From assembly GCA_005772855.1 (NCBI GenBank), contig SXIK01000008.1, positions 11,344-75,343 of the forward strand: a stretch of 64,000 nt of DNA. The letters are read 5' to 3'. Below, in pieces: positions 6,893 through 29,130 of the stretch. Positions within the stretch are counted from its first letter, which is position 1. Each line of letters begins with the position of its first letter. The DNA comes from Planctomycetia bacterium. GTDB lineage: Bacteria > Planctomycetota > UBA8108 > SXIK01. Made by a program: the position numbers and the translations under genes. The notes under the pieces were generated by a model. That model did no database searches and was not told where the DNA came from. It was given only the letters and a program-made list of their open reading frames with translations.

Positions 6893-7922
6893 TCGCTTCC
6901 CGTCCGAGAGTGACGCCATCGTTGCTGCCAGTACTGTTCGTGCCGTTGCCTTCGGTGGGGGAACGGGCATGGCCGCACTACTGGCCGGCCTCAAGGCCTT
7001 TACCCCCAATATAACGGCAGTTGTTACCGTCACCGACAACGGCGGAAGCTCGGGCCGGCTCAGGAATGACTTCGACATGGCCGCCCCGGGGGATCTCCGT
7101 AATTGCATTATCGCCCTTGCCGACGTGGATCCTGTTCTTGCCAAGGTCTTCCAGTACCGGTTCCACGAGGCAGAATTTCGTGACCACTGCTTCGGAAATC
7201 TCTTCATCACAGTGCTTACGCGAGTGGTGGGAGACTTTGAGGAGTCGATCCGGATTTTGAACGGGCTGTTGAAGGTCCGTGGTCGCGTGATCCCGGCGAC
7301 GAGCAGCAAGGTCTCTCTTGTCGCGCATCATCCGGGCGGATCAAAAAGCACCGGAGAGGTACAAATCACCCGATCGAGGAAGCCAATTGACCGAATCGAG
7401 CTGCGGCCATCTCCCGTGCCGCTTTCCCGAGAGATTCGAGAAGCGATTCAAGCCGCAGATCTCTTCCTCTTCGGTCCGGGCAGTTTGTTTACGAGCGTGA
7501 TTCCCAATTTGCTCCTGGAGGGGATTGTGGAGGCGATCAACGAGAGTGGGAAGCCGCGGGTCTACATCGGAAATATCATGACGCAGCCAGGTGAGACGGA
7601 TGGGTTTCAGTTGAGTGATCACATTCGGGCGCTCCGGCGCCATGTGGGCGCGGATTTCCCGGACAGTGTAATAGCCCACGAAGGAGCCATTCCGGAGCAG
7701 TTGGCCGAGAAATATTTCGAGTTAGGCTCCACCCCCGTGCTGCCCGACCTGGAAGGCAAGCCGGAGTTCGAGGGTATCCGGGTCATCAGAAGAAATCTGC
7801 TCGCATCGGGGGGGACAGCCCGGCACGATTCTGACAAGCTGGCGCATGTGATTCGCGACGAGTTTCTCATCCCGATTGCAAGATCATTGAAGCCACTGCT
7901 TTCGGGGGTCTCATGGAAGTGA
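6873..7922 (+). CDS. yvcK: YvcK/GlmR/CofD-like UDP-sugar-binding protein
   Basis: AFGGGTG, VTDNGGSSGRLR, PGDLRNC, FQYRF, HCFGNL, GPGSLFTSVIPNL, NIMTQPGETDG, RHDS. Confidence 0.92.
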   Translation: MTTSSADRFPSESDAIVAASTVRAVAFGGGTGMAALLAGLKAFTPNITAVVTVTDNGGSSGRLRNDFDMAAPGDLRNCIIALADVDPVLAKVFQYRFHEAEFRDHCFGNLFITVLTRVVGDFEESIRILNGLLKVRGRVIPATSSKVSLVAHHPGGSKSTGEVQITRSRKPIDRIELRPSPVPLSREIREAIQAADLFLFGPGSLFTSVIPNLLLEGIVEAINESGKPRVYIGNIMTQPGETDGFQLSDHIRALRRHVGADFPDSVIAHEGAIPEQLAEKYFELGSTPVLPDLEGKPEFEGIRVIRRNLLASGGTARHDSDKLAHVIRDEFLIPIARSLKPLLSGVSWK

Positions 7923-8188
7923 GCCACACAATTGAACTGACCAACCTGTACGGGCTTCATGCCCGTTCGTCCTCCCTGCTCGCCCAGACCGCTCAACAAT
8001 TCAAGGCTGCAATTCGCCTTGGACGGTTGGGTGCCAACGATGAGGTTGACGCCAAGAGCATTTTGGCCTTGCTGACTCTTGGCGCCTCCAAGGGCCAAGC
8101 CCTGTTGATACGTGCCTCGGGTGAAGACGCCGAGAAGGCAGTCGTCGCGTTGACTGAACTCATTGGGAAGAACTTTGGGGAGGAGTAA
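7913..8188 (+). CDS. ptsH: HPr phosphocarrier
   Basis: GLHAR (His15), DAKSILALLTLG (Ser46 region) and ASGEDAEKAV. Confidence 0.93.
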   Translation: MEVSHTIELTNLYGLHARSSSLLAQTAQQFKAAIRLGRLGANDEVDAKSILALLTLGASKGQALLIRASGEDAEKAVVALTELIGKNFGEE

Positions 8189-8511
8189 GTCCACCTCTCC
8201 ATGGTTGCAAAGCACCGTCACCTTCAGTTCACGCCCCAAGGCTGAAGGAGAGGCCGCCGGAGGAGCAGAGACCGCGACCGCCCGGGGGGAGTATCTTTGC
8301 AGTGTGCGCCCGACGAGGTAAAGTAGGCTTGCAAGTGGCCGTGGCCAACACCGAATTTTGGAATAGGCTTGAACAGTCAGTCTAAAATCCGGGCCACAAC
8401 TGAGGGTGATTTAAAGGTCCGGACCGACGTCAGGCGACAGAGACAGCGCACGGAAGACCCAGCTCTGAGGGTATTTTCTTGCGGTCGACGTTAACCAAGG
8501 AGTTATTTGCA

Positions 8512-10242
8512 GTGGAGACGAGGAGAGGCATCCCAGTCTCACCAGGGATTTGCCTTGGCGAGGCGGTCGTCCTCGGCCACGAGGACCTTCGAATCGAAGT
8601 TCGAACGATCCTGCCAGAGAACGTCGAGGCGGAGATCCATAAGTTCGACAGTGCCGTCGCGAGAGTTGTCGAGGAGATCACCCAGGAAATCACCAGATTT
8701 GGAGATACCCTCCGAATTACGCGCCAGATCCTGGAGAGCCACCGGGGAATGGTTACTGACCCAGGGTTGCGGGAGGAAATCGTCTCGCGCATCCGCGATA
8801 GCCACCAGAGTGCCGAATATGCCCTGACGCTCGTCCTGCGTGGTTACCACAAGCGGTTCGAGCAGATGGAGTCGGAATACCTCTCCGAACGATCACACGA
8901 CCTCGCGGACATCGAGCGAAAGCTACTGCGGGCCTTGCTGGGGAAACAGCTTGCAAGGCTACAGGAGCGCGGCAGCGATGCGGTCCTCGTGGGGCACAAC
9001 CTGACCCCCGGCGAGGCAGTAACCTTGGATCCGAACTGGGTGAAAGCCTTCGCCATCGACGTGGGAGGTCGAACCTCACACACGGCAATCATGGCCCGTG
9101 CGCTGCAGATACCTGCGGTGGTGGGTCTCAAGAACATCTCGGAACTGATCTCCGGGGGCGAGCAAGTCGTTGTGGATGGTTACACGGGGCTCGTGATCAT
9201 TGATCCAGACTCGAAGACTCTTGAGCTCTATCGAGGTCGCGCAACGAGCTCACGGGATTTCTATCGCCGTCTTCACCGTGAGATCGGCCTACCTGCCGAG
9301 ACGGTCGACGGCTACACGATCAGCCTGGCGGCCAATATCGAGATGCCGCAGGAGATCCATGTGGCGCTCGAGTGGGGCGCTTGCGGGATTGGGCTTTACC
9401 GCACCGAGTTCCTCTACGAGAAAGGGGAACCGGACGAGGAGCTGCACTTCCGAACCTACAAGAAGGCGATTCGGGACTTGAAAGGAAAGTACCTCGTCAT
9501 TCGAACGCTGGATGCCGGCGCCGACAAGTTTCACCGGGAGGCTGTGGGAGGTCACGAGCACAACCCTTTCCTGGGCTGCCGGTCGATCCGTCTATGTTTT
9601 CAGCGCCCCGAGCTCCTCAAGGATCAGCTTCGCGCTATCCTTCGAGCATCGGTTTTCGGACCGGTACGCATCCTGTTTCCGATGATCTCGAGCCTTGATG
9701 AGCTTCGTGGGGCCCGGGCCATGCTGAAGGAGGTCGAGGATGGGCTCACCCGAGACGGCATCGAATTCAACAGTAATATTCCTGTGGGGATCATGGTTGA
9801 GATCCCCTCCGCCGCACTGCTTGCTGACATCTTCGCCAGAGAGGTGGACTTTTTCAGCATTGGGACCAATGATCTCATTCAGTACTGTTTGGCAGTGGAT
9901 CGCGTGAACGAGCGGGTGGCACACCTCTATCAGCCAGCCCACCCTGCCATTCTCAGGCTGGTGGCCGGGGTGATTGATGCCGGGAGACGCCATGGTATCG
10001 ACGTATCTATTTGTGGTGAGATGTCCAGCGAACCCATCTACACGATCTTGCTACTTGGGCTTGGGCTGCGGAGCTTCAGCGTGAGCCCCATCTCGATCCC
10101 CACAGTGAAGCGGCTCATACGCCAGCTCAACATGCGGGATGCTGCCGAGGTGGCAAAGGCCTGTCAGCAGTTCGAGACTTCCGAGGAGACTCTGGCCTTC
10201 ATTGAGTCTCGCGTGAAGAAGTTCCTTCCAGACTTTTCCTGA
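8512..10242 (+). CDS. ptsI: PTS Enzyme I without a GAF domain
   Basis: [57 protein letters not shown] 8512 has AAGGAG upstream; TTG 8479 is an alternative start. Confidence 0.96.
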
Positions 10243-10576
10243 CTTGCCAGGTCTCGACTCGGAGTACCTGAAAACGAAGGGCATCCATTTCCGGCACGCG
10301 GGCGACTCGTGATGGACGGCGTGTGCACGGTTTGTCAGTGAAGGTGCTGGCGAATAACAGCCGCTGAGCACACCCGTGGAGTCTTCGTTCTTCCCCAGCG
10401 GGACTGATAAGGCCTGCCTCTTGCCCACAGTTTCGAAAGGCTATCAAGTCGCACGGTAGTCTTCTCCGATCCTCTGTTGGTTTCACAACTCCTAAAGCTG
10501 TTCATGGCCCTTTGTGGATCGATTAACTCTCGTGGGTTATCGCCTGGGGCCCAGCTGTACAAAAGCGGATGGGTCT

Positions 10577-11617
10577 ATGCTGGGTAAGAAAAAGAGCTTA
10601 GTCGGGCTCGACATCGGCTCGAATGAAGTCAAGGCGATCGAGTTAACCCAGATCGGCGACCAGCTGAAAATTACTGGGTTCGGTCATGCTCCAATACTCT
10701 CGAAAGATGGGCTAAAGGACACCATCTCCGAAGTTTTTCGTCGCTCCGGTATAAAGACGAAGCGCGTTGCGACGGCCGTTTCAGGCAGGGCAGTGATTGT
10801 CCGTTATATCAACATGATGAAGATGGCGGACGATGAGTTGAAAAGTGCGCTCCGGTTCGAGGCCGATAAATACATCCCCTTTCAGGTGGACGAGGTTGTG
10901 TTGGACTGCACGCGCCTTCCCGATTTCGGGGAGCCAACCTCGCCAGACGCCGAGAAGGAAATGAAAGTTCTCTTGGTTGCTGTCAAGCAGACACTGATCG
11001 AGGAGCACTTGCAAGTCATTCAGAGCCTTGGCCTCACGCCGACAGTCATCGACGTGGACACCTTTGCACTTGGCAACGCGTTCGAGCTCAGTTCGATGCA
11101 TAGCCCCCGGGTGGAGGACGAAGAGAAAGTCTTCGCCTTGGTCGACGTCGGATCGTTGAAGACGAATATCAATATTATCAAGAACAACACTTCTTACTTT
11201 TCGCGCGAAGTCTACCTGGCAGGTAATGATTTCACCGAAGCGATCGCAAGAAGGCTCGGGACTGATAATGCCGAGGCAGAAAAGCTGAAGCTAAATCCCC
11301 AAGGAAAAGAAGAGGCGATCGAGGAGAGCATTCTGCCGACTCTGGACGACCTGGGAAATGAGATCCACCTTTCGTTCGACTACTACGAGAATCAGTATGA
11401 CCGTGAGGTCGACGAGGTCTTTATTTCGGGCGGGAGCGCAAAAATCTGCGGGTTAAAGGCGGCCTTCGAGCGAGTCTTCGATCGAAGGGTTCATGGCTGG
11501 GACCCGACAGAAAATCTCGAAGTCAAGAGCGATCGTGTCGATTTACAGGACATGAAGGACCACAGCGCGCAGCTTAGCGTGGCGGTTGGCCTCGCGTCTA
11601 GAATTCTCGATCGGTAA
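10577..11617 (+). CDS. pilM: Type IV pilus assembly protein PilM (actin/FtsA-like)
   Basis: VGLDIGSNEVKAIEL, EADKYIPF, ALVDVGS, AGNDFTEAI, FISGGSA, VAVGLA. Confidence 0.92.
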   Translation: MLGKKKSLVGLDIGSNEVKAIELTQIGDQLKITGFGHAPILSKDGLKDTISEVFRRSGIKTKRVATAVSGRAVIVRYINMMKMADDELKSALRFEADKYIPFQVDEVVLDCTRLPDFGEPTSPDAEKEMKVLLVAVKQTLIEEHLQVIQSLGLTPTVIDVDTFALGNAFELSSMHSPRVEDEEKVFALVDVGSLKTNINIIKNNTSYFSREVYLAGNDFTEAIARRLGTDNAEAEKLKLNPQGKEEAIEESILPTLDDLGNEIHLSFDYYENQYDREVDEVFISGGSAKICGLKAAFERVFDRRVHGWDPTENLEVKSDRVDLQDMKDHSAQLSVAVGLASRILDR

Positions 11618-11637
11618 GCAGCAAGGAAATTCCCTCC

Positions 11638-12309
11638 ATGATCCGCATTAATTTACTTCCCAAAGAGCTTCAGCATGCAGCTCAAACGCCCGCCAAGCTG
11701 TTCATCACGGTGCTGGCTTGTGTGGCTCTTGGCCTCGTCCTGGTTTGCACCTACATTTACTTCTGGTTCAGCGTCATCGTCTTTCAGGAGCGCGTGGAGC
11801 GCAAGAAAGATGAAGTCGAGCAGCTCCAGAAGGCTGCGGCTGAGGTGGATGCCCTGCTGGACGACATCGCCGAATACAAGGAGCGTGAGAAGGCTATTAT
11901 CAGTATCAAGACCAACCGTGTGCTTTGGTCGAAGAAACTGGATGAACTTACAAGAATCACCCCTTCCTATGTCTGGATAGTTAGACTCGACATGCGGGAG
12001 CTCGATCCCAGTGAATACAAGTGGGACCAGAAGCAAACGCAGACCGGCGGTTTCCTGCGGCTGAAATGCTATTCACTTGGTAACGACGTTGATCGCATGA
12101 CAGCCTACAGGAAGACCCTCAAGAGCGCCGATGAGTTTTATCTGAAATTCATGCAAGAACAGGTCAAGCCTGAAAATTTTTACTCTGATTTTGTCAATAT
12201 TACTCAGCCAGAGTGGCGACTTGTATTGCTGAAAGGGTTCAGAGAACCAACCAATATTCGTTTTTCGGTTCGCCTCGACCTCAGGCCACTAGTGGAGCGC
12301 AAGGCATAG
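11638..12309 (+). CDS. pilN: Type IV pilus assembly protein PilN
   Basis: N-terminal MIRINLLP PilM-binding motif, one TM segment, coiled coil, and WSKKLDELTRITPSYVWI. Confidence 0.85.
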   Translation: MIRINLLPKELQHAAQTPAKLFITVLACVALGLVLVCTYIYFWFSVIVFQERVERKKDEVEQLQKAAAEVDALLDDIAEYKEREKAIISIKTNRVLWSKKLDELTRITPSYVWIVRLDMRELDPSEYKWDQKQTQTGGFLRLKCYSLGNDVDRMTAYRKTLKSADEFYLKFMQEQVKPENFYSDFVNITQPEWRLVLLKGFREPTNIRFSVRLDLRPLVERKA

Positions 12310-12311
12310 TC

Positions 12312-12950
12312 ATGGTCAGACTCAACGACAAGCAGAAGATCTTCGTGGCAGCGGGAATCTTTGTTCTCGTGACCGGCGGACTTGGCGCTCTGAACTACCT
12401 GAAGTACCGCGAGCGTGCGCAGCTTCAGGCTCAGATCAACAAGTATACCGAGGAGGAGCAGGTTGCGACCGCCAAGATCAAGCAGATTCCAGAACTTCGC
12501 GAAAAGCGGGCCAAGCTCATCAGTAATCTCGAGCAGTACGCGGAAATTCTCCCAAGAGAAGAGCACGTCCAGCACGAGGCTTTCATGGAAATTATCGATG
12601 GGTACCGCAAGGACTCCAAGATTGTGATCCAGAAGGCTGAATACGTGAAAGTCAAGGAGGATGAAAAAGCGCCCAAGCAGGACAGCTTCATTCGGCATCG
12701 CTACAAGTTCAAACTGCTTGGAACGGTTCCGGATTTTGTTGAGTTTGTTAACAAGATTGAAAACCACACGCGATTTCTCAAGGTTGACACATTCAACATC
12801 CGGCCGCTTGGAACCATGGAGGAAAGCGGTGCTGAGCTGGACGACAAGGCCGACGACACGGAACTGAGTGCGGCGAGTGATCCCATCAAGGAAATTGAGC
12901 TCACGGTCAGCACGTACACCTATTCGAGGGGCGAGGCCAAGAAAGTATAG
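12312..12950 (+). CDS. pilO: Type IV pilus assembly protein PilO-like
   Basis: N-terminal TM, coiled coil, EILPRE, LLGTVPDFVEFVNKIE; position after pilN. Confidence 0.75.
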   Translation: MVRLNDKQKIFVAAGIFVLVTGGLGALNYLKYRERAQLQAQINKYTEEEQVATAKIKQIPELREKRAKLISNLEQYAEILPREEHVQHEAFMEIIDGYRKDSKIVIQKAEYVKVKEDEKAPKQDSFIRHRYKFKLLGTVPDFVEFVNKIENHTRFLKVDTFNIRPLGTMEESGAELDDKADDTELSAASDPIKEIELTVSTYTYSRGEAKKV

Positions 12951-12952
12951 TC

Positions 12953-14542
12953 ATGACGCATCGCACAGAGAAGGTACTAACAAACAGAATCGTTGAGCCC
13001 GGAGAAGAGTTTCCCGTCCCGGCCATTCGTTGCCTGGGGGCCATGAGGAGTGTTCTGGATCTGATCAATGGCAGGCCAGGTGCACCCCCCCCGGGAAGGA
13101 GCACTGCATTCCAGCGGCCGATTTCAGGGACTGGCCTCCTCGGCGCCGTTCTCGGAACCGCCATCGTCCTTGCTTTGTGCGGTGGAACACGTCGCCTGGA
13201 GGCCCAGGCGCCACAGGTCCAGGTGGAGGATGAAGTTCGGGCTGCCCTGCCCTCGGGCAAACCCACCCTGGATGCGCCACAGAATCCCGACGCAGCGCCG
13301 GGGGCGAACAGTCTGTGGAATGTGATCTCGAAAGGCGTCGGCGGTTCCGGAGCTCAGAGCGGCATGGGGGCTGGGCCACCTGAGGCTGGTGCGAACGAGG
13401 AGATGCAGAAAAAGGTCAATGAGCATGTGCGCCTTGCGCACCAAAACATGGAGAAGGGTCGTGTCTCGGAGGCTCTGAAGAATGTCAACGAGCTGGTCTC
13501 CCTGCGGCCTTACGAGTCAGAATACCACCTCGCGCTGGGGCTCTGTTTCCGGCGTGAAGGCAAGTATGCCGAGGCACAGAAAAAATACCAGGATGCGCTG
13601 GACCTGGGTGGGCCCAAGGCGCTTGTCGCTCTACTGAAAGCAGAGGCTGCCGCAGCGGAGGGCAAGCATGAAAAGGTCTTTGAGCTCTTGAAAGAAGCAG
13701 CGATCGGAGGACGAAACATCATCAATGATGTCCGGCTCTTGCCCCTGCTGAGCGTATTCCAGAATGACTCGGAATTTGTGAAGCTGGCTCTCCAGCTTGA
13801 GCATGTGACAGTCACATCCACCAGGTCGTTTGACCCTTTCACGAATCCTTTTCCTCGATCCGACCTGAAAGGGGACAAGGGTGGGCAAAATATTGCGGAA
13901 ACTGTTACGGCCCTGGCTCCCGAGGAGCAAGAAAAGCTCCTGCAAGAGGCCCGCAAGACCCTGGAGCGTGTTCTCTTCTATATTAAACTTGACGATGACA
14001 ACAAGGCCATGAAAGCCTACGGTAGTTTGAAAGAGATGATTCGTAAGAAGGAAATGATTACGGTTCCGCGAATCATTAATGACTTCAAGAGTTTGGCCAG
14101 CCGACTTGAGAGCCTCGAGGTAGAGATCCAGGGAATTCGCCTGAAGTACTACTACAATCTCGCACAGTCCAAGTTGAAGCAAATGAAGGACTCCTTCATG
14201 GACGGAGAGTATGAGAAGGTCGAAGGCACTCACGGCGAAGTGATCAAGTTGACGCAGGAAATGGAGGCGACCAATGCCAACTACAAGCCAGTCGCCGAGC
14301 AGATTGTAAGTGCCTCCAGCAAATGGGTAGCACGAGCGCGGGTCCGTCAGGATTTCGAATCGCGGAAGCCAAGCATACAGGGCATTGTCATTTCAGATGA
14401 TGCGAAGGTCGCGCTGCTGAATGATCGTTTTGTGAAACAGGGAGAGTACTTGGACGATGTTCGCATTGTAAAGGTGGAGTCGAACAAGGTGACTTTCCGA
14501 TACAAAGGGGAAGAGATTCCCTTGATTTTCAGACGGTATTGA
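12953..14542 (+). CDS. Exported TPR/coiled-coil protein with C-terminal PilP/GspB/MshK-like beta domain; start uncertain (12953 or 13043)
   Basis: Hydrophobic segment ending LEA-Q, TPRs (EYHLALGLCFRREGKYAEAQKKYQDAL), RSFDPFTNPF, and C-terminal SIQGIVISDDAKVALLNDRFVKQGEYLDDVRIVKVESNKVTF. It sits in the pilP slot between pilO and the secretin. Confidence 0.7.
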   Translation: MTHRTEKVLTNRIVEPGEEFPVPAIRCLGAMRSVLDLINGRPGAPPPGRSTAFQRPISGTGLLGAVLGTAIVLALCGGTRRLEAQAPQVQVEDEVRAALPSGKPTLDAPQNPDAAPGANSLWNVISKGVGGSGAQSGMGAGPPEAGANEEMQKKVNEHVRLAHQNMEKGRVSEALKNVNELVSLRPYESEYHLALGLCFRREGKYAEAQKKYQDALDLGGPKALVALLKAEAAAAEGKHEKVFELLKEAAIGGRNIINDVRLLPLLSVFQNDSEFVKLALQLEHVTVTSTRSFDPFTNPFPRSDLKGDKGGQNIAETVTALAPEEQEKLLQEARKTLERVLFYIKLDDDNKAMKAYGSLKEMIRKKEMITVPRIINDFKSLASRLESLEVEIQGIRLKYYYNLAQSKLKQMKDSFMDGEYEKVEGTHGEVIKLTQEMEATNANYKPVAEQIVSASSKWVARARVRQDFESRKPSIQGIVISDDAKVALLNDRFVKQGEYLDDVRIVKVESNKVTFRYKGEEIPLIFRRY

Positions 14543-14770
14543 TTCTTTTCGAAAAGCCGTGCAGCAGTATCGAGGAATCACAGCAGAGATTTGTAACACG
14601 CGAAGTTGAAGTTGATTATTTCCAATGCGGACTCTCCCTGGTGGGAGTGACGGTGCCGCTCGTGTCTAGGAATGTGGGTTGAGCCCTTCAAAGGCTTGAC
14701 CTCAACGGAATAAACACTCAAGGTTTGGGTTGGCCTCGTAGGCAATCGAGGCGATACCGTTGGAGGAACC

Positions 14771-16759
14771 ATGCGGTTGAAGTCTTTCAGGGTGGCATTT
14801 TTCGGTAGCCGAGGCCTTTGGGCTCTCTGCGCCATTGTCTCAACGTTCACTGCTCTCAAGGGGCAGGAGCCGACACAAGACGTCGAGGCGGTGAAAGGCG
14901 CCACGAATATTCAGGATTACAATACAAGTCCTGAACAGTCTGCGAACGACAACCGTGAGTATATTTGGCTCGATGTCAAGGGCAAGGATCTTCATGAAAT
15001 CCTTGCCTCAATCTCGAAGCGTGTTGACGTAAACATCATCGCCGACCCGGAAGTGAAGGAAAAAGTCACTATCCAGCTGGACCGGGTTGAGTGGCGAAAC
15101 GCGCTCGCTGTCATCGCCCGGCAAACAAATTGCAGAATCATCGAGGAGAGCGACCGTCTGATTCGCTTTTCTCAGCCGCCGTCGATCAGCATGGAGTTCC
15201 AGGACGCGGATATCAAGATCGTCCTCGAACTCCTCGCGAAACAGGCTGGCGCCAACATTGTCATGAACGCCGACGTGCAGGGCAAGGTGAGCCTGAGCCT
15301 GCGCGAGGTCCCCTGGCGTGAGGCTCTGGACACGATCGTGAAGACGGCAGGGTATGTTGTCGTGAAATCCGAGACGTCATCTGGAAACGAGATCATCCGC
15401 GTCGTGCGCCCCGAGTCTCTCAAGGAGCAGCTCGAGTCGCGCACCTTCCGTCTCTTGTACGTGAGGCCGGACGATCCCTATGGCGCGATCATGAGCGACA
15501 TCGAAAAGTGGTCCAAGACTCCGGGCGGGGGGCGTCCATCCTCTGGCGGAGGAGGTGGTGCAGACCGAGACATTGGCGGAGGTGGTGAGTCGAGCAGTCG
15601 GGGCGTCTCGTCCAGCGACGAGCCCTTCAGCCTCGAATCAGCGCTGCAGAAGGCGATTTCCAAGGACGGTTCGCTTCAGTACGACAAGTATACGAACACG
15701 TTTATCGTGAAAGACATCAAGCCGAAGCTTGACGAAATCGCGGAAATGATTCACCTCATTGATGTGAGGCCGGCTCAGGTGTTCGTCGAGGTCAAGTTCA
15801 TCCGGACGACGAACGCGGATCTACTCGAGCGCGGGATCAAGTTCGACTTGCCGAACACCCCAGAGCGGGACGGATTCCAGATCACCGCCCGGGGCGCTGA
15901 TCCAGACAGCACGTCATCGGATCCGCTCCGCCTCTTTGGTGGCACGTTTCCTTTCGACATTGGCCGTATCGACAATGTGCCCAAGGATTTCCAGGCCCTG
16001 GGCATCCTCGACTTCACGCAGACCCGACTTGTTCTCAGCATGATCAAGGATGATGAAAACAGCCGTATCGTGCAGGAGCCAATGCTCAACATGCTTGATA
16101 ACAAGCCAGGAACGATATTTGTTGGTGAAACGGTGCCTTTTGCAGTTCAGAAGATTCAGTCGGACCAAAACGGAAACATCACGGTTGCCATCGACGAGAA
16201 CAAGAGGTCGCCGATCAACATTGGCTTCACGCTCTACTTGACTCCCCACGTGATCCCGGGAACGGACATGGTGGACTTGACCGTGATTCCCAAGGTCTCG
16301 GCTCTCTCTGGAACGACCTCTGCGATCGAAGGATTCGAGCGCTTTTCGTTCACTTCCGAGGATTCAGGCACCCAGTCCTTTATCGACCTGCCCCGGGAGT
16401 CGGCGCAGACGGTCGTTACCTCCCTCAGGGTACATGACAGGCACACGGCGGTCATCGGAGGCCTGCAGACCGAGAGAAAGACGGAGATTGAGAGCAAGGT
16501 TCCCATTCTTTCGAGCATTCCCATTCTTGGGAATTTCTTCACCTGGCGGAGAAAAAAGAACAACATCGACTCCCTGATCATCATGATCACGCCCCATATC
16601 GTGAAGAACGTCGGGGACGAGGACAAGATTCTTGAGGATGCCAACAACAGGCACAAGGAAAAGGACTTTTTCTACCAGAAGTATGAAAAGCCCGTGCAGG
16701 AGAGCGAGCCGCAGAAGTCGGGGGCCAAGACTGCCGACACGCAAGTCCAGGGAAACTAA
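14771..16759 (+). CDS. pilQ: Secretin (PilQ/GspD family) with two N0-like domains
   Basis: Signal peptide, ISMEFQDADIKIVLELLAK..VSLSLREVPWREALDTI, IDVRPAQVFVEVKF, TAVIGGL, KVPILSSIPILGNFF, LIIMITPHIV. Confidence 0.88.
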   Translation: MRLKSFRVAFFGSRGLWALCAIVSTFTALKGQEPTQDVEAVKGATNIQDYNTSPEQSANDNREYIWLDVKGKDLHEILASISKRVDVNIIADPEVKEKVTIQLDRVEWRNALAVIARQTNCRIIEESDRLIRFSQPPSISMEFQDADIKIVLELLAKQAGANIVMNADVQGKVSLSLREVPWREALDTIVKTAGYVVVKSETSSGNEIIRVVRPESLKEQLESRTFRLLYVRPDDPYGAIMSDIEKWSKTPGGGRPSSGGGGGADRDIGGGGESSSRGVSSSDEPFSLESALQKAISKDGSLQYDKYTNTFIVKDIKPKLDEIAEMIHLIDVRPAQVFVEVKFIRTTNADLLERGIKFDLPNTPERDGFQITARGADPDSTSSDPLRLFGGTFPFDIGRIDNVPKDFQALGILDFTQTRLVLSMIKDDENSRIVQEPMLNMLDNKPGTIFVGETVPFAVQKIQSDQNGNITVAIDENKRSPINIGFTLYLTPHVIPGTDMVDLTVIPKVSALSGTTSAIEGFERFSFTSEDSGTQSFIDLPRESAQTVVTSLRVHDRHTAVIGGLQTERKTEIESKVPILSSIPILGNFFTWRRKKNNIDSLIIMITPHIVKNVGDEDKILEDANNRHKEKDFFYQKYEKPVQESEPQKSGAKTADTQVQGN

Positions 16760-16821
16760 GACTCTGGCCTTCGATGGCGTCAGAAAGTCATCGAAAAGGT
16801 GATGGGTTCTGAGTATCATGT

Positions 16822-16868
16822 GCCGTGGGAGAGAGCTTCAAGAAGCTCTCTCCCACGGCGTTTTTTTT
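16822..16868 (+). terminator. Rho-independent terminator ending pilus operon 1
   Basis: Perfect 17-bp stem GCCGTGGGAGAGAGCTT / AAGCTCTCTCCCACGGC with a CAAG loop, followed by G and eight T. Confidence 0.92.
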
Positions 16869-17163
16869 GGCAGCGCGCTGTCAGGTCACTACAGCTCTGC
16901 TGCAGGGAGCAGGAGAAATAATTTCAGAGCCACCGAAAGGCGAATTGCCCGTTGAGGACGAAACGAAAGCGTGATGGCTTGCAGCCTCGCCGCCGAGCGA
17001 CACCAAGTGCCGGTGACAGGCTCTCTCTGGCGCGATCTTGCGGCCGGGTGAGCACGACGAAAGCAAGAGATTTCAAGGCGCGGCGAGTCCCACCTTGTCC
17101 TGCGTCTTCACTTGTTGCAACCTCAACGCTTGTAGCCCCTTCGTAGCTTGGAGGAAGAAGCCC

Positions 17164-20100
17164 TTGTCAGACACAAGTCCAGATCAAAAAGGCAACAACA
17201 CGGCTGGGTCGGGGGAGGAACCATTCGGATTCGGTCTTTTCGAGGAAAAGCGAACGTCCACTCCCAAGACTCCCAGGAGCGGCGAGCCCGCCGTCCGCGA
17301 GATTGTGGATCGAGTGCCTCCTTCGGGAATGTCGCCCCGGCCTGCAGTGCAGCGACCCGGAAGCCTGTCGGATTCAACCGCACAACTTGCGCAGGCAGAG
17401 ACAAGACCAGGCAATATTGTGGACAAGGGGTCGGAGACTCCGTGCCAGGTGGTACCAGACAATGAGTTGCCGCCTCCCCGCGATTCCCGCAGGCGCCGAG
17501 GCCTTGGTGCTCCAGTTCGATCGACGAGCCGCCTTCGCCGAGCGAAGGTTCCCGGGCAGGAGGAGACCTCCGAGGGAGGTGAGGCTGCACTCTCGGAGGC
17601 CCCTCGCCCGATCGGTCCTGTGGGGTTGGAGCCCAGTTCTCTCAAAGCCGACCGTACCCTCGACGATAAGCGGCCCGCCAAGGAGAGGCGTCCGGCGGAG
17701 CCTCTTCCTTCCGCGGGCCCTCCGCCCATGGAAGTCCCAAAACCTTTGCCTTGCGAGATGCCAGCGACCAGTTTGGACGACGAAGCCGAGTTCACGGCCG
17801 CGATTCCGGGTACTGCTGCGGAGGCCAGTGAGCAGGCCCCGAGAGTGGCACCAGCTCAGCGTCGGGAGCCCGATTCCCTGAGGGGTGAGCGTCGAGATCG
17901 CAGGGATCATCGGGATTCCGTTGAAGCACGAGTCCAGGGGGCAGCACAAGGCAATGGTCCGCAGAAGGAGCTCAACGAAGGAGAGGAGCGGCGAGATCGC
18001 CCAGGACGCTCGCGTCGGCGCAGGGGGCGAGGTCGTGATGGATTCCGGGACGAGGGGGCTCCACGCGCGGATCTGCGAGCTCGCAAGGAGGTCCCGATGC
18101 GAGAAGCCCCTTCGGACATCTCCCTGAGAAACCCCTTGCTCAAGGATCGGGAGATAGTCGTTGGCCCGACTGGCTTTCGATACCAGCCGCGATCAGCTCA
18201 GGGCGAGCGAGACTATTCCGATAGGCCCGCCGAGCGGCTTGAGAAGCCAAAGCCACAGCCTCCCCTTCCACCGCGAAGGCGGGATAGCGGTGCCCTGGAG
18301 TCCCGGGAGATGTCGGCCAGGGAGCGCCCCGCCGGGGTTTCCGGTGCTGCTCCGATACCCGAACTCCCCGATCCTGGCCGTCGCCGGGGGCGAGCGAGGG
18401 GGCGAGGTCGGCAAGGTTTCCAGTCGCGCTTTGTTGAGGAATCGCCAAGACGTCCCGCCGAGGAGCTGGATTCCTGGGATGCGCCTCTGGAGCACCGGAT
18501 TAGTCCGCCGCAAGGGGAGGGTCTGGGTCGCGCCGTTCCTGTACCACGCATGGAGCCAGCGTTGCCTGTGGATCCGGAAATATCGACCGAAGGTCCCGAG
18601 ATCGACGTCCCATCCTGGGTTGAGCCAGAGCTGGAGGAAGGCAGGAGGTCGAGGCGATTCTTGCCCAAGAATCAGCGAGGCGCCGGTCCCGAGCTTCTGC
18701 CGGCTGGGGAAGGGATCGAGCCTGAGGACGAGGAGCTCGAGGACCCACTTCCCGAGGCGCTACCTCGGGGGGGAGAAGAGCTGGCAGTAAGCCAGAAGCA
18801 GATCTTGATCAATGCGATCGACCCGGAGGAGGTTCGTATCGCGGTGTTGGAGAAGGGACTACTTGAGGAGCTTTATTACGAGCGTCCGACGGAGAAGAAG
18901 TATCTAGGAAATATCTACAAGGGCCGGATTGTCAATCTGGAGCCAGGAATTCAGGCCGCATTTGTCGACATTGGCATTGGCCGCAATGGATTTCTGCACG
19001 TCTCTGACGTGCTCCCAGCGTACAAGGAAGCAACAGGGATCCCCATGGATTCCCTCTCGACCCGGTTACCGGACCGCCGACGCCTCAAGATTCAAGAGAT
19101 TCTTCGCAAGGGGCAAGAAATCCTTGTCCAGATCTCGAAAGATGCCATCGGCACCAAAGGGCCCAGTCTTACTACCTATGTCTCCATCCCGGGTAAGTAC
19201 CTCGTCCTCATGCCCGGAGTGAGTCGCCACGGGGTCTCCAAGCGCATTCAGGATGATGATGAACGATCCAGTCTGAGGGCGAAACTCTCGCAGCTCAACC
19301 CGCCCAAGGGCGTGGGTTACATTGTGCGCACGGCGGGCCAGCACCGGCCTCAAGCTGACCTTGAGAAAGACTTCGGCTACCTGATGAAGATGTGGGAGGA
19401 GCTCCGGACGAAAGTTACGGGCCAGCCGACGCCCTCCATCGTCTACGCGGAGACAGACCTTGTCACCCGCACCATGCGGGACTTGTTCGGGCCCGACGTC
19501 TCGGAGATCTTGATTGATGAGGGGGTTGTTTACCAGCAGGCCCGAAAATTCCTGGACGAGGTGATGCCCCAGGCTGCCCGGAGGCTGAAGAGCTATTCCG
19601 GGGCGATCCCACTTTTTTCAAGGTTCTGCGTTGAAGAAGAGATCGAAAAAATCTACAATCGTCGGGTTCCACTACCCAGCGGGGGTCACATAGTGCTGGA
19701 GCAGACCGAAGCTCTGGTGGCTATTGACGTCAACTCGGGGAAGTACCGCGACGAAGATGACCTCGAGGCCACGGCCTTGAAAACCAATCTCGAGGCCGCG
19801 CAGGAGATCGCCCGACAGCTTCGGCTCAGAGATCTCGGCGGAGTCATCGTCAACGACTTCATCGACATGGAGACGGAAGCCAACCGCCGGGCGGTGGAGC
19901 GAGCGCTTCGAGTTGCCCTGAAGCGGGACCGAGCCAAGAGCTGGATCTCTCGGATCTCCCGTTTTGGGATCATCGAGATGACGCGACAGAGAGTTCGGCC
20001 GAGTTTCGAGCGGTCGAATCATGAGTCGTGCAGGTTCTGTCGGGGAACCGGCGGGGTCAAATCGGCCAGGAGCTGCGGAATCGCGATCTTGCGCCAGATT

Positions 20101-23226: not shown

Positions 23227-23988
23227 ATGCTGCTTGGACTCGTCGCCGGAAACACCAGCCTGCGAATCGGACTTTTTAGCGCACGGACGATCCTCGAGTG
23301 GCGGCGCATCGAATGGGCCGAGTTGGACCGACGGGGTTCGGAAATCTCGGCTCTTGTGGCGGGTGGCTCGGTCTCGGAATGCGTAGCGGGCTCTGTTCGG
23401 GATGACCTACTGGACCTTGTCGGCGCTTGGTTGCCGCACGGGCTTTGGCCGCCCCAGTTGGCCCGGCGAGACTTCCCAATCCCGATAGAGAATCGCTACT
23501 TCCCTCCCGAGGACGTCGGCACTGACCGTTTGCTGAACGCGCTCGCAGTGCGGGAGTTGTCGCAAGTGGGGGCTTCAGTTGCGGTTGATTTTGGAACCGC
23601 TGTGAGCGTGAGCGTTGTTTCGTGGGACAGAGTTTTTGTGGGAGGCGCAATAGCCGCTGGGGGAAAAACCCTGGCGCAGGGTCTCAAGGCCGCGGCGCCG
23701 AGGTTGCCACTCGTCGAGCCGGCAACCGTGAGCGGTTGGATTCAGAATCGCACGGTGGAGGGAGTCCAGAGCGGCGTCTACTGGCAGGTGGCAGGAGGCG
23801 TGCGCGCGATAGTCCAGGGCATCTTGCGAGAGCTGGGCCCAAGTCACTCCGGAGCCACCACACGGCCGCGAGTTTTTGCGACGGGAGGTGAGGCGCACCT
23901 GTTTGCTCCTGCCATCGCCGAGATTGACGAGGTCGTTCCCGAGTTGACCCTTCAGGGACTTGCCTACGCAAGTTCACTTCGAGAGTGA
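23227..23988 (+). CDS. coaX: Type III pantothenate kinase; Asp of the DxGNT motif is replaced
   Basis: LVAGNTS, GTDRLLNA, VDFGTA, GGAIAAG, TVEGVQSG, ATGG, LTLQGL. Confidence 0.85.
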   Translation: MLLGLVAGNTSLRIGLFSARTILEWRRIEWAELDRRGSEISALVAGGSVSECVAGSVRDDLLDLVGAWLPHGLWPPQLARRDFPIPIENRYFPPEDVGTDRLLNALAVRELSQVGASVAVDFGTAVSVSVVSWDRVFVGGAIAAGGKTLAQGLKAAAPRLPLVEPATVSGWIQNRTVEGVQSGVYWQVAGGVRAIVQGILRELGPSHSGATTRPRVFATGGEAHLFAPAIAEIDEVVPELTLQGLAYASSLRE

Positions 23989-23992
23989 CCCC

Positions 23993-25192
23993 ATGAAGGA
24001 AGGGATCTGGTTTCACCGCTCGACACCGCGGGGTGAAGGCGGGATCTTTGTTTTTGAGCTCTATGGCGCAGAATCGAAGGCCGGTCTCGAGAAAATTTTT
24101 CGGCCGCGCAGCGGCCACTTGCCCGACGAGGGTCGACTCCGACTGGGAGATCTCGTTGACTTGCGAGGAGAAGTTATCGATGAGTGCGTACTCGCGAGGG
24201 TTGCTCCTGGCTCTGCCTGGTCGAAGCTCCCGACCTGGGCCCTGAGCGTTCACGGCGGCCCCTGGGTCCAGGAAAAAACCACCGAATCGCTGCATGCGTT
24301 GGGAGCCATGGAGCTGGATCTTCGAGGCGTCTTGTTACGCTCCCTTCAAGAGGGGAGTCTTGACTGTATCGAGGCTGCCGCCCATGAACTCCTTGTCAGT
24401 GCCCGGACGGAGAAGGCTGCTTGTTTCTTCGCCCGCCAGCATGTCGGCGAGCTTTCGGCGCTCCTGCGGGAGGGGCTTGAGGCCGTCAAGCGGGGTCATC
24501 TCGATGTCTCCCGGGAGATTGCGCGCAGTGCCATTCTTTACGCGCAAGAGGCGTATCGGCTCGGTCATCCACTTCGCGTCTTGATCGCGGGTCCTCCGAA
24601 CGCGGGCAAGTCGACACTGTTTAACCGTCTCGCCGGGGAGGAGCGGGCCATCGTTTCGCCAATTCCGGGGACCACCCGAGATTCGCTGGAGGAGACCGTG
24701 GTCGTGGAAGGGTTTCCCGTGCTCGTGAGGGATTCGGCAGGCATCCGCGATCTTGACTTCACAAGGGAGGTCGAACGTCTCGGGATTGAAAGGACGCTCG
24801 AGCGGCTGGATGACTCGGTTCTCTACTTGATTCCCTATCCGTGGCGGCTGACTGAGGATGATCGGCAGTTCATGGATCGCTGGCCTTCTGAGAGGCTCGA
24901 GCTTGTACACAGCTTGGCCGATCTGACTTCCGAAAAAACGTCCTCTTTTGAGCCATTGCGACTTTCGGCTCTCAGGGGCGACGGTGTAGACTTATTAAAG
25001 CGTCAGATTGTGGCTCGGTGGCTTTCGCCGCGGCTTGAGCCAACGAACCACGTGCCTGTCGCTGCATTTACTCCGCGCCTCGAGGCTGCCTTGCGACGGA
25101 TCGAGGCGGTCGAAGGCAGGACGTTGGCCGCCGCACTTGACGCCCATCGCAGCGCCTACTTAGAATGCTTGAACTTTTCCTGGCCCCAATGA
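23993..25192 (+). CDS. mnmE: MnmE/TrmE-like GTPase, atypical (G4 degenerate, no C-terminal FCxGK)
   Basis: STPRGEGGI, SVHGG, GELS, GPPNAGKSTLFNRL, AIVSPIPGTTRD, DSAGIR, VERLGIER; 399 aa. Confidence 0.75.
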   Translation: MKEGIWFHRSTPRGEGGIFVFELYGAESKAGLEKIFRPRSGHLPDEGRLRLGDLVDLRGEVIDECVLARVAPGSAWSKLPTWALSVHGGPWVQEKTTESLHALGAMELDLRGVLLRSLQEGSLDCIEAAAHELLVSARTEKAACFFARQHVGELSALLREGLEAVKRGHLDVSREIARSAILYAQEAYRLGHPLRVLIAGPPNAGKSTLFNRLAGEERAIVSPIPGTTRDSLEETVVVEGFPVLVRDSAGIRDLDFTREVERLGIERTLERLDDSVLYLIPYPWRLTEDDRQFMDRWPSERLELVHSLADLTSEKTSSFEPLRLSALRGDGVDLLKRQIVARWLSPRLEPTNHVPVAAFTPRLEAALRRIEAVEGRTLAAALDAHRSAYLECLNFSWPQ

Positions 25193-25782
25193 GATCAGCT
25201 CCACTACCTATTCCCCCCGAGTCCACGGGGCCAGCCTCCACCCAGCGGTTCCATTGCATGGGGCCAGCCGAGTTCAAGGTTGTGTTTGCTGAGTGGCAGC
25301 AGAAGATATCGCGCACTCTCGGTTCCAGCAAGACGCCGTGGGCCATCGTGGGGATAAAAAGGCGTGGAGCGGTGCTCGCTCGTCGGCTCTGTGGCATGTT
25401 CCAGGGCGAGGGTTCTTCGGTTCTCCACTACGGCGAGATTGACATTTCCCTCTATCGCGACGACTACCACCTGCGGTCTTCAAAGCCAATGGTGCTGGGC
25501 AGTGAGATCACGTTTCGGGTGGAAGGCCTCAACATACTCCTTGTCGATGACGTCCTTTTTTCGGGACGTACGGTGCGTGCAGCGCTGGACCTGATCCTTG
25601 ACTTCGGTCGCCCTAGACAGATCTCCCTGGCTGTCTTTATTGATCGAGGTTACAGGGAACTTCCCATCGCCGCCAATGTTGTCGGTCGGGAGATTGCGAC
25701 GGAGCCGGGTGACCAAGTCCTCGTGACGCTCGAGGAGATGGGCGAGACGGACGGCGTCGACTTGTTGAGGAAGAATCCATAG
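25189..25782 (+). CDS. pyrR: PyrR bifunctional pyr regulator / uracil phosphoribosyltransferase
   Basis: GIKRRG, DISLYRDD, LVDDVLFSGRTVRAALD, DRGYRELPI. ATGA overlap with the mnmE stop. Confidence 0.93.
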   Translation: MRSAPLPIPPESTGPASTQRFHCMGPAEFKVVFAEWQQKISRTLGSSKTPWAIVGIKRRGAVLARRLCGMFQGEGSSVLHYGEIDISLYRDDYHLRSSKPMVLGSEITFRVEGLNILLVDDVLFSGRTVRAALDLILDFGRPRQISLAVFIDRGYRELPIAANVVGREIATEPGDQVLVTLEEMGETDGVDLLRKNP

Positions 25783-25806: not shown

Positions 25807-26820
25807 ATGGAGGACTTCGGCAAGGAGCGGGTGGAGTGGACCAGAAAAGACCTACTGGGTCTCGAGGGCCTGTCGAAAAACGAAATCTACGCAATACTTG
25901 ACCTCGCCGACGGCTTCAGGGAAGTCTCAACTCGCAGTATCAAGAAAGTACCCGCACTGCGGGGCAAGGTCGTCGTCAACCTCTTCTTCGAGGCTTCCAC
26001 TCGGACGCGCATCAGCTTTGAGTTGGCCGGAACTCGCCTCTCGGCGGACGTTATCAATTTCTCGGGCGCCAGCAGCTCCACGGTGAAGGGGGAAACCCTG
26101 ATGGACACGGCCCGAAATATCCAGGCCATGGGCGTCGACATTCTGGTCCTGCGTCATCCATGCTCGGGGGCGGCCTACCAGATCTCCAGGGGCGTGACGG
26201 CGAGCGTCGTGAATGCAGGAGACGGGGCGCATGAGCATCCGACGCAAGCGTTGCTCGATATTTTCACAATCCGTGCTCGGTTAAATCGGGTCGAAGGCTT
26301 GAAGGTAGCCATCGTTGGGGACGTGAGCCACAGCCGGGTTGCTCGCTCCAATATCTGGGGTCTCCAGAAACTCGGTGCGGAGGTCTACGCGGTTGGGCCG
26401 CCAACCCTTGTGCCGCGAGGGCTCGCCAAGATGGGAGTAAAAGTCTCGCACTATCTCGATGAAATCCTGCCCGAGATCGACGTCTTTAACATGCTCCGAA
26501 TTCAGAGTGAGCGGCAGGATCAGGGGCTTTTCCCGACGATTCGGGAATACTCTCGTCTCTTTGGGTTAAACCGGGAGCGTATGAAGCGCGTGAAACCCGA
26601 GGCCATTATTCTTCACCCTGGCCCAATCAACCGCGGAGTAGAAATTACGCCAGATGTCGCCGATGGGCCCCAGTCGGTGATTTTGGAACAGGTGGCGAAC
26701 GGACTGGCCGTGCGAATGGCTGTCCTCTATCTTGTTGGGACTCGGGTCACCCAGCCTCTTGGGACGCCGCAGCATCCTGCTCCGGCCGTGTTGCCGGCTG
26801 CAGGAGGGCCAGAGGCATGA
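25807..26820 (+). CDS. pyrB: Aspartate carbamoyltransferase catalytic subunit
   Basis: [62 protein letters not shown]. Confidence 0.97.
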
Positions 26821-28127
26821 GCGAGAAACGCTTCGTGCTCGTTCGAGGCGGCCGCCTTGTTGACCCCGCCACCGGGCGCGATGGGACGGGCGACCTCCTG
26901 ATTGAGGGGACCCGTATTCGTGCCCTCGGGCATTTCGAGCTGCCTTCCGCCGAGGACACCTTGGTGGTGGAGGCCAGTGGGCTGATTGTTACCCCGGGTC
27001 TCATCGACATGCATGTTCATCTTCGCGAGCCGGGCAACGAGGAGGAGGAAACGATCTGGAGTGGATCCAGGGCGGCGATCGCCGGAGGCGTCACGAGCGT
27101 GGCGTGCTTTCCCAACACTGAACCTGCCCTTGACAATGAAGCCGCAGCCGAGTTCGTCGTGCTTCAGGGTAAACGAGCCAATCTTGCAAACGTCTTTCCG
27201 GTGGGAGCGGTGACGCTCGGCCGGGAAGGGGTGCGGCTTGCGGAAATGGGTGGCCTGGCGAGAGCGGGCGCTGTGGCCTTCAGCGACGCGGACCGATGCT
27301 TGCGGTCTGCGGAGGTCATGAGGCGTGGCCTGCTCTACGCGAGGCTGTTCGACCTTCCTGTCATCGCCCACTGCGAGGACATGGACCTGCGCGGATCAGG
27401 AGTGATGAATTACGGGCGCGTTGCGCTGAACCTTGGGCTCCCGGGCATTCCCGATGTCGCCGAGGATATTGTGATTGCCCGCGATCTCTTGCTCGCCGAG
27501 ATAACCATGGCCACGCTTCACATCGGGCACATGAGCACCCGGGGAGCGGTCGATCTCTTGCGGGAGGCCAAGGCGAAGAAACTCGAGGTCACGGGTGAGG
27601 TTAACCCACCCCACTTTGCGCTCACGGAGGAGAGCCTCGTCACGTACGACCCCAATTTTAAATTGGTCCCGCCGCTGCGTGCTGCGGTTGATGCCGAGGC
27701 GTTGATCAGGGGCCTGCGGGACGGCGTGATCGACGTGATCTCGTCCGGACATGCGCCGCATTCGACAGAGGAAAAGGAGCTGGAGTTCGTTTACGCGCCA
27801 CCGGGCGTGGTGGGGCTTGAGACTCTTTTTCCCGTCTGCTACACGGTGCTCGTGGAGCGGCATGGCTTTTCGCTCCTGAAGCTACTCGAGAAGCTCACCA
27901 TGAACCCCGCTCGCATCCTGCGCCTGTCGAAACAGCGTGGGAGCCTCGCACCTGGCATGCTCGCGGACGTGAGCGTCTTCGACATTTCGAAAGAGCGCGT
28001 TGTGCGGTCCTCCGAGTTTCGCTCGAAGAGCCGCAACACGTGTTTCGAGGGCTGGCGCGTCAAGGGCACGACCGTGCATGTCTTCGTTTCGGGCCGTTGT
28101 GTGTTCCAGGATGGTGAATTCTGCTGA
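26817..28127 (+). CDS. pyrC: Dihydroorotase-family protein, probably a catalytically inactive PyrC'
   Basis: [17 protein letters not shown] and H..HMST are retained. FxDDG reads FSDAD, KxNPPLR reads KLVPPLR and TDHAPH reads SGHAPH. Confidence 0.88.
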
Positions 28128-28239: not shown

Positions 28240-29130
28240 ATGCTAGAAGCAGTCGAAGGGACAGAGACCGAAGAGTGTCTCCGCAGTGAGATTGCACGGT
28301 TGAAGCGCGTTTTGATTGAACGCACCGAGGCGCTACTCGTCGCCCGAAAGGAACTGGGGGTCCTTGAACAGATGAAGCGGGACTTTATCGCGCTCGTCTC
28401 GCACGAGTTGCGTACCCCCCTCACGAGCGTTATCGGGATCTCCGACCTGATTCAGCAGGGCTTGTACGATTCCGGTGAAGATTTGCGGCAAATGTCCGCG
28501 AACCTTTCGATCGAGGCGAAGCGCCTGGGTCACTTTGTCGACGACGTCATCGAGTTCGTTCAGTGGAGTTCCGGCCTTGTCTCCTTGAAGATCCAACAAT
28601 TTGACCTTGTTGCCTGCGTCAAGGAATCCGCCCACAAAGCTGCTTCGCAACATGCTGAAAAGGGGCTTGAGCTTGTTCTCAAGACGGCAGAGGAGCTTTG
28701 GATCGAGGGTGATGCGAGCTTGATTGCGGACTGCTTTCTCAGGATTCTCGACAACTCCTGCAAGTTCTCCCCTGCCGGGGGAAAAGTAGAAGTTTGTGTC
28801 GAGTGGGTCTCCTGCCCCGGATTCGAGGCTGAAGGCCGAGCCGTGGTCCTTGTGAGGGATCACGGCGCAGGAATTCAATCCGAAAATCTCCACGACCTTT
28901 GCAAGGTGTTCACGCTCTGCCACTCCTGCCAGAACCATGTGCGGGGAAAGGGGCTGGGACTCGCGATTTGTTGGGAGATCCTGAAGGCCCACGCCGGGAC
29001 GATCCGGGTCGAAAGCCCTGTGGAGGAGAAGGGTTGCGGAGTGATTGTCACCCTGCCGCTGTCTCCGCGGGGGCCTCAGCCAGGCGACCAGGGTGATACC
29101 GTCATTTCTCGGGTGTCTACCCGCGTCTGA
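28240..29130 (+). CDS. Orphan sensor-less histidine kinase (coiled coil, HisKA, HATPase_c)
   Basis: FIALVSHELRTPLTSV (H box), ILDNSCKFS (N box), VRDHGAGI (G1), GKGLGLAI (G2). Confidence 0.88.
   Translation: MLEAVEGTETEECLRSEIARLKRVLIERTEALLVARKELGVLEQMKRDFIALVSHELRTPLTSVIGISDLIQQGLYDSGEDLRQMSANLSIEAKRLGHFVDDVIEFVQWSSGLVSLKIQQFDLVACVKESAHKAASQHAEKGLELVLKTAEELWIEGDASLIADCFLRILDNSCKFSPAGGKVEVCVEWVSCPGFEAEGRAVVLVRDHGAGIQSENLHDLCKVFTLCHSCQNHVRGKGLGLAICWEILKAHAGTIRVESPVEEKGCGVIVTLPLSPRGPQPGDQGDTVISRVSTRV

Follow-up and report, generated by a model that had tools for sequence, protein, structure and literature searches.

The locus considered here raises the question of why a gene of pyrimidine biosynthesis should be kept once its product appears to have lost the means of catalysis. 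The gene, which we call pyrC', lies in a window of 64,000 nucleotides (the whole stretch of DNA analysed, positions 11,344 to 75,343 of contig SXIK01000008.1, assembly GCA_005772855.1) from a Planctomycetia bacterium; positions given below are those of the window. It follows pyrB, the gene for the catalytic chain of aspartate carbamoyltransferase (ATCase), and encodes a homologue of dihydroorotase (DHOase). The explanation that best accounts for the data as a whole, and which we regard as probable, is that PyrC' is a catalytically dead type I DHOase of the kind known as PyrC' or pseudo-dihydroorotase (pDHO), likely serving as a scaffold subunit of ATCase.

Both sequence and fold place PyrC' among the type I DHOases. 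The protein matches the NCBIfam model TIGR00857 ('pyrC_multi') with 381.5 bits against a cut-off of 279 and carries the Pfam domains Amidohydro_1 and DHOase. It can be aligned end to end with the DHOase of Aquifex aeolicus (3d6n and related entries; 40% identity, E value 4e-94), and also aligns with the DHOases of B. anthracis, T. thermophilus and S. aureus. The AlphaFold (AF2) model of PyrC' (pLDDT 93.6, pTM 0.93) finds its top structural match in 3d6n_A, the ATCase-bound Aquifex DHOase, with TM scores of 0.94/0.97 and a root-mean-square deviation of 1.5 Å; collapsin response mediator proteins (CRMPs) are present among the other fold matches. The Aquifex DHOase–ATCase dodecamer (class A1) is accordingly the closest solved structure in sequence as well as in fold, with the same domain layout, and its ATCase partner is homologous to the PyrB encoded here.

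It is at the metal centre that the two proteins part. In the Aquifex enzyme, whose numbering is used hereafter for comparisons between homologues, the zinc ligands are His61, His63 and Asp153, followed by Asp305, the next ligand, at a distance of 2.7 Å (PMC3880350), and the enzyme is active in the complex with both Asp residues in place. In PyrC' the alpha-site set is incomplete: the two His residues of the HxH motif are present, Asp153 is replaced by Ala158, and the catalytic Asp of strand 8, Asp305, is replaced by Gly311. Of the four residues surrounding the catalytic zinc only two thus remain, and the strand-8 Asp is not one of them. A preliminary description of the locus had read these changes from the sequence as SGHAPH in place of TDHAPH and FSDAD in place of FxDDG, and both readings proved exact to the nucleotide. 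In FSDAD, encoded by TTC AGC GAC GCG GAC (27279–27293), it is the second Asp of the Aquifex sequence T-D152-D153-G154 that has been lost, as the alignment with 3d6n makes clear, while Asp152 is kept as Asp157. Elsewhere in the active site PyrC' retains His61, His63, Arg65, Asn95, His180, Cys181, His232, His306 and His309; the substrate-binding residues are thus all present (Arg70, Asn100 and His315, corresponding to Aquifex Arg65, Asn95 and His309).

Two other deviations that the same description had counted towards inactivity, KLVPPLR for KxNPPLR and EVNPPH for EVTPHH, are real in the sequence but are not diagnostic. The position of Asn277 varies (N, S, H, A, T, R or V) in catalytically complete homologues, and the active Aquifex enzyme itself reads EVNPNH, without His at the differing position. 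We have dropped both motifs as proof of inactivity, since intact homologues and Aquifex vary there too. Judged by the roles of the residues that have been replaced, PyrC' is nevertheless very probably unable to make dihydroorotate.

The same two losses characterize a whole clade of proteins. A search of 5.8 billion proteins was made and the best 120 cluster representatives were taken. Among these, all 82 full-length proteins with at least 57% identity to PyrC' are without both Asp153 and Asp305, and all those with at most 56% identity keep both. In a maximum-likelihood tree the 82 degenerate representatives are monophyletic (support 0.999), and their sister pair (P0077 and P0085) retains Asp153 and Asp305. 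A further 80 homologues from named genomes, belonging to Planctomycetota of other orders, Acidobacteriota, Desulfobacterota and others, all keep Asp152, Asp153, His180, His232 and Asp305. When the sets are pooled, Asp153 and Asp305 are found in 118 of 118 intact homologues versus none of the 82 clade members, where position 153 is occupied by Ala (71), Ser (6) or Gly (5) and position 305 by Gly (71), Ala (10) or Ser (1). The neighbouring Gly154, found in 114 of the 118 intact homologues, has become Asp in 78 members of the clade and Glu in two, Gly remaining in two. His180 is kept in 73 and replaced by Phe in nine; position 232 holds His in 43, Gln in 37 and Asn in two. The remainder of the pocket hardly varies, with His61 retained in 81 of the 82, His63, Arg65 and His309 in all, and Asn95 in 79. 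Orthologues from 17 genomes of the same order, representing three families, tell the same story: Asp305 is replaced by Gly, Ala or Ser in every one, position 153 is always Ala and position 154 always Asp, and many also show His180 changed to Phe and His232 to Gln. Asp159, the clade-fixed residue encoded at 27291–27293, adjoins the lost zinc-ligand position, and Phe98, Tyr342 and Phe338 are likewise specific to the clade.

These replacements stand out against the rest of the protein. Sixty-nine of the 80 positions with at least 95% conservation among intact homologues are still conserved to 90% or more in the clade. Among the 11 that have relaxed are Asp152, Asp153, Gly154, His180, His232, His259 and Asp305 (for the metal-centre set, Fisher p = 0.003). 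The pattern indicates that constraint is lifted specifically at the catalytic centre.

It might be argued that PyrC' is still an active DHOase that works with substitute residues, for example if the metal ligand has moved to Asp159 and another residue acts as general base. The retention of the HxH motif and of the substrate-binding residues would fit such a view, as would the conservation of the adjacent Asp at position 154. Moreover, the Aquifex DHOase is mononuclear and its His180Ala/His232Ala mutant is active (PMC3880350), which shows that this type of enzyme tolerates the loss of both residues; for the same reason we treat the loss of His180 and His232 in relatives of PyrC' as supporting evidence of inactivity and not as strong proof of it. 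The strand-8 Asp, however, is present in 118 of 118 intact homologues and gives way here to Gly, Ala or Ser, a variety typical of a site without a chemical role. In addition, every genome carrying pyrC' has an intact DHOase of a second type, described below, which is missing from genomes whose type I enzyme is intact. We therefore consider continued DHOase activity very improbable.

If catalysis has been lost, the protein is evidently still needed. Comparison of pyrC' with a 97%-identical metagenomic copy gives 44.5 synonymous and 11.5 non-synonymous differences, that is, a ratio of non-synonymous to synonymous substitution rates (dN/dS) of 0.08, and comparison with a 79%-identical copy gives 0.11. 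The values for pyrB in the same two comparisons, 0.15 and 0.075, are similar. The gene is under strong purifying selection, and it combines this with the absence of catalytic residues, as expected of a pseudo-DHOase.

These data also bear on the more trivial explanations that come to mind when catalytic residues depart from the family consensus, namely that pyrC' is a decaying pseudogene, that the assembly or the sequencing is in error, or that the protein is an amidohydrolase recruited to a different reaction. Taken together these are highly improbable. The reading frame of pyrC' is open throughout without an internal stop, as are its counterparts in 82 independent clusters and 17 genomes, and the confident structural model points the same way. 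Because 82 clusters carry the same losses and dN/dS is 0.08, sequencing error, chance and pseudogene decay can be rejected, and the comparative data have already refuted them; the preliminary description, which had held error to be unlikely in view of several independent changes, was right in this respect. As to a new reaction, hydrolysis would still require the superfamily's ligands on strands 4 and 8, both of which are gone, and the operon context is strictly pyrimidine.

Loss of activity in PyrC' would imply that dihydroorotate is made by another enzyme. It had been proposed that the active DHOase is encoded elsewhere, and a search of the assembly (5.03 Mb in 244 contigs, 96% complete) for a second pyrC indeed revealed one further DHOase-like gene, outside the window. 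The case named as refuting the proposal, a genome with no second DHOase, does not apply here, and those predictions of the proposal that could be computed were all borne out. Its product, P0002 (426 aa; G000:C211:81385-82662, minus strand), contains HVH, the carboxylated-lysine position (YKAYMG), FHAED, CHLST, EVTPHH, NPPIR and TDHAPH. It scores 254 bits with TIGR00857, just below the cut-off of 279, and matches the archaeal DHOase equivalogs; its top match in the Protein Data Bank is the Methanocaldococcus jannaschii DHOase 7uof (E value 1.3e-42). With that enzyme P0002 shares the HxH motif, the position of the carboxylated Lys, both later His residues, EVTPHH, NPP(I/L)R and (T/S)DHAPH, differing from it in being bacterial. 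All 25 good-quality genomes of the class have an orthologue of P0002, and the 13 catalytic or binding positions that were checked are invariant in 29 of 29 orthologues, down to 44% identity. By all these marks P0002 is a fully intact archaeal-type DHOase and is predicted to make dihydroorotate. Its neighbours, as read from translations of their open reading frames, resemble tig-clpP-clpX-rpmE-prfA and do not form a pyr operon.

A type II DHOase was also sought in the 244 contigs and none was found, and pyrD and pyrF are present in the genome. Four other amidohydrolases were considered as possible hidden DHOases and rejected: a NagA on contig C49, a TRZ/ATZ-type deaminase on C116, a PRK09237-type metallohydrolase on C121 and a PRK09061-type amidohydrolase on C152. 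Contig C190 further contains, outside the window, an array of amidohydrolase-like genes (7126-17878, minus strand), judged by coordinates, with nine closely spaced partial matches to the Pfam amidohydrolase profile in about five long frames of 423–828 aa; the 828-aa frame, when translated, contains more than one amidohydrolase-like unit.

The two kinds of DHOase are distributed in a complementary fashion among planctomycetes. A gene of the P0002 type is absent from twelve genomes whose type I PyrC is intact; their sole match to P0002 is weak and, in the three genomes in which coordinates were compared, is the type I gene itself. In the order to which the window belongs, P0002 is accompanied by the degenerate PyrC'. 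In another family of the same class (f4; loci L033 and L034) P0002 occurs with a PyrC' that has decayed differently: Cys takes the place of His61, Asp that of Asn95, Arg that of His180 and Arg or Val that of His309, and Asp305 is Gln in one of the two copies and retained in the other. This pattern suggests that decay may have continued independently once catalysis was dispensable. Two more families, f5 and f6, have P0002 only and no PyrC'. The complementary distribution, together with the intact state of P0002, implies that the chemistry has been taken over by the paralogue. The simplest history would be that the class adopted an archaeal-type DHOase, which freed the pyrB-linked copy from catalysis, and that this copy was then kept or lost. 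The ancestor of the class would thus have come to depend on the P0002-type enzyme, leaving catalysis by the pyrB-linked copy dispensable; one order, plus a neighbouring family with a different course of decay, would have kept the protein for a non-catalytic role, and two other families would have lost it.

What that role might be is suggested by the partner. The window's PyrB has intact STRTR, HPTQ, HSRVARS, LRIQ and HPGP motifs. It is Pseudomonas-like, with N- and C-terminal extensions, and is 54% identical to PyrB of P. aeruginosa and 39% identical to those of Aquifex and S. aureus. Past the ATCase fold its C terminus (window 26740–26820) runs on for about 27 aa as a tail rich in Pro and Ala, and in relatives this end of the protein is poorly or not at all alignable; P. 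aeruginosa PyrB likewise has a C-terminal extension. The stop codon of pyrB overlaps the start codon of pyrC' (Table 1), as had been described for this intact, HxH-containing frame, and the coupling is conserved in relatives. Indeed, in 21 of 21 related loci examined pyrB stands before pyrC', mostly with an ATGA, GTGA or TGATG junction, and in 20 of them pyrR precedes pyrB, the exception being a short contig that begins within pyrB.

Pseudomonas offers the precedent. In P. aeruginosa and P. putida (class A2 ATCase) the pDHO, also named PyrC' or PyrX, is a DHOase homologue of about 45 kDa that likewise has no catalytic capacity (Schurr et al. 1995, as cited in PMC7053772) and is required for assembly and activity of the ATCase trimers (PMC7053772). 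Its gene lies directly after pyrB and overlaps it, and a separate active DHOase is encoded elsewhere. The arrangement is the same here, pyrC' being immediately after pyrB and coupled to it in a genome that encodes a separate intact DHOase.

We think it likely that PyrC' is a subunit of an ATCase holoenzyme, because its coupling to pyrB is conserved and purifying selection is strong, because it descends from the type of DHOase that forms 6+6 complexes with ATCase in Aquifex, and because there is the precedent of the Pseudomonas pDHO, together with a PyrB that is 54% identical to that of Pseudomonas and shares its extensions. PyrC' would be produced in concert with PyrB by the pyrR-pyrB-pyrC' operon and would most likely join PyrB trimers in a class A2-like holoenzyme, as do both the Pseudomonas pDHO and the active Aquifex DHOase. 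In class A2, PyrC' and PyrB make up a 6+6 complex of roughly 480 kDa; that the planctomycete pair may do likewise is indirectly supported by the Pseudomonas-like PyrB and by the top fold match of PyrC' to a DHOase from the Aquifex complex.

Several observations weigh against this account. The sister families f5 and f6 have a PyrB without PyrC', which implies that an ATCase of this class can work alone; in the three f6 loci that were inspected, pyrB comes after the mnmE-like gene also found in the window's locus and is adjoined by neither pyrR nor pyrC', and the PyrB proteins of f5 and f6 are only 38–45% identical to that of the window. The assembly, in 244 contigs and 96% complete, may hold a further DHOase besides the P0002 already found. 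Finally, His61, His63, Arg65, Asn95 and His309 are near-invariant in the clade, and a new Asp, 95% conserved, has appeared at position 154. A pure scaffold would not obviously need such a pocket, and its retention hints at residual binding of a metal or ligand.

The last point leads to an alternative that would add to scaffolding. PyrC' might be a regulatory pseudo-enzyme whose half-pocket and Asp154 hold carbamoyl-aspartate, dihydroorotate or a metal but turn nothing over. Such binding would then tune ATCase, couple it to the level of product, or serve to dock the stand-alone archaeal-type DHOase or hand product to it. The pocket residues are conserved in 79–82 of the 82 clade members even though His232 and His259 have drifted to about 50%; position 154 is Asp in 95% of the clade and Gly in 97% of intact homologues; and the Pseudomonas pDHO did not retain the HxH motif. 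On the other hand, 69 of the 80 highly conserved positions are kept anyway, and retention of the pocket may reflect a general constraint on the fold. We regard this alternative as rather unlikely. If it were true, a sensing PyrC' would represent an intermediate stage of pseudo-enzyme evolution that is no longer visible in the fully stripped Pseudomonas pDHO.

Whether PyrC' acts as a scaffold alone or not, the surroundings of the operon are of some interest, and the features of the locus are collected in Table 1. The true start of pyrR is possibly downstream of the first start codon of its open reading frame. Upstream of pyrR, at 23960–25192, is a gene for an MnmE-like GTPase that remains linked to pyrB throughout the class. 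In the 79%-identical locus (L156) it stands before pyrR-pyrB-pyrC', and in family f6 (L177, L179 and L181) pyrB comes directly after it. Downstream of pyrC', at 28240–29130, is a gene for a soluble histidine kinase of 296 aa with HisKA and HATPase_c domains and no evident sensor or membrane segment; a histidine kinase follows pyrC' in L156 as well.

Table 1. Genes of the pyrR-pyrB-pyrC' locus and active-site positions of PyrC' (window coordinates)
Feature	Position	Strand	Evidence or comment
pyrR (PyrR regulator / uracil phosphoribosyltransferase)	25165-25782	+	NF003549, E 4.8e-45, 153 bits against a cut-off of 138
pyrB, aspartate carbamoyltransferase catalytic chain	25807-26820	+	NF002032, 407 bits against a cut-off of 263
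ATGA overlap, pyrB stop / pyrC' start	26817-26820	+	Translational coupling
pyrC', putative pseudo-dihydroorotase, 436 aa (P0001)	26817-28127	+	TIGR00857; homology to 3d6n
His66-Val-His68	27012-27020	+	Aquifex His61/His63; HxH metal motif kept
Asp157-Ala158-Asp159	27285-27293	+	Aquifex Asp152-Asp153-Gly154; zinc ligand Asp153 replaced by Ala
His185	27369-27371	+	Aquifex His180 (beta-site); unchanged here, replaced by Phe in part of the order
His238	27528-27530	+	Aquifex His232 (beta-site); unchanged here, replaced by Gln in about half the clade
Gly311 (GGA)	27747-27749	+	Aquifex Asp305, strand-8 catalytic Asp and fifth zinc ligand; lost, two changes from GAY

The likeness to the Pseudomonas system does not extend to ancestry. 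The Pseudomonas pDHO has lost the HxH motif (DLSVALREPG in P. aeruginosa, of which a partial sequence was compared), whereas in the planctomycete PyrC' it is Asp153 and Asp305 that have gone, HxH, Arg65, Asn95 and His309 being kept; moreover, the active DHOase is here of the archaeal type, unlike in the Pseudomonas comparison. Common descent with the proteobacterial pDHO lineage is not borne out, given that HxH is kept and that the sister and outgroup proteins are intact DHOases. As PyrC' has its nearest relatives among intact type I DHOases, from other Planctomycetota and from other phyla, the loss is independent of that in Pseudomonas, and on the available sequences the planctomycete protein is the same kind of protein as pDHO by convergence and not of the same lineage. 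Non-catalytic members of the superfamily are known from eukaryotes too: the pDHO domain of fungal Ura2 and the CRMP/DPYSL proteins have kept the fold, lost metal-binding or catalytic residues and taken on structural or scaffolding roles (PMC7053772), although they belong to other subfamilies and have other partners. In the literature library searched, no paper was found to combine dihydroorotase, planctomycetes and pyrB.

The finding opens no new kind of biology, since pyrB-linked pseudo-DHOases are already known from Pseudomonas; the planctomycete clade is a further, independently evolved example. It has consequences for annotation, however. Members of the clade are labelled 'dihydroorotase' in public records wherever they are named, and at least 82 protein clusters, together with a whole planctomycete order, score above the TIGR00857 cut-off as active enzyme. 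Because PyrC' lies above that cut-off and P0002 just below it, metabolic reconstructions would credit the wrong gene, and automatic annotation may leave P0002 unnamed while calling the dead copy 'dihydroorotase'. Screens for PyrC' that rely on a missing HxH motif would in turn overlook the clade, as only Asp153 and Asp305 are gone. From an evolutionary point of view, the planctomycetes would offer a clean and datable case of enzyme displacement in which the pseudo-enzyme has been retained, with its stages still visible: the sister lineages are intact, the loss goes back to a single event, decay at His180 and His232 came later and by degrees, and neighbouring families have lost the gene outright. 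The system may therefore be useful for asking what ties ATCase to a DHOase-shaped partner.

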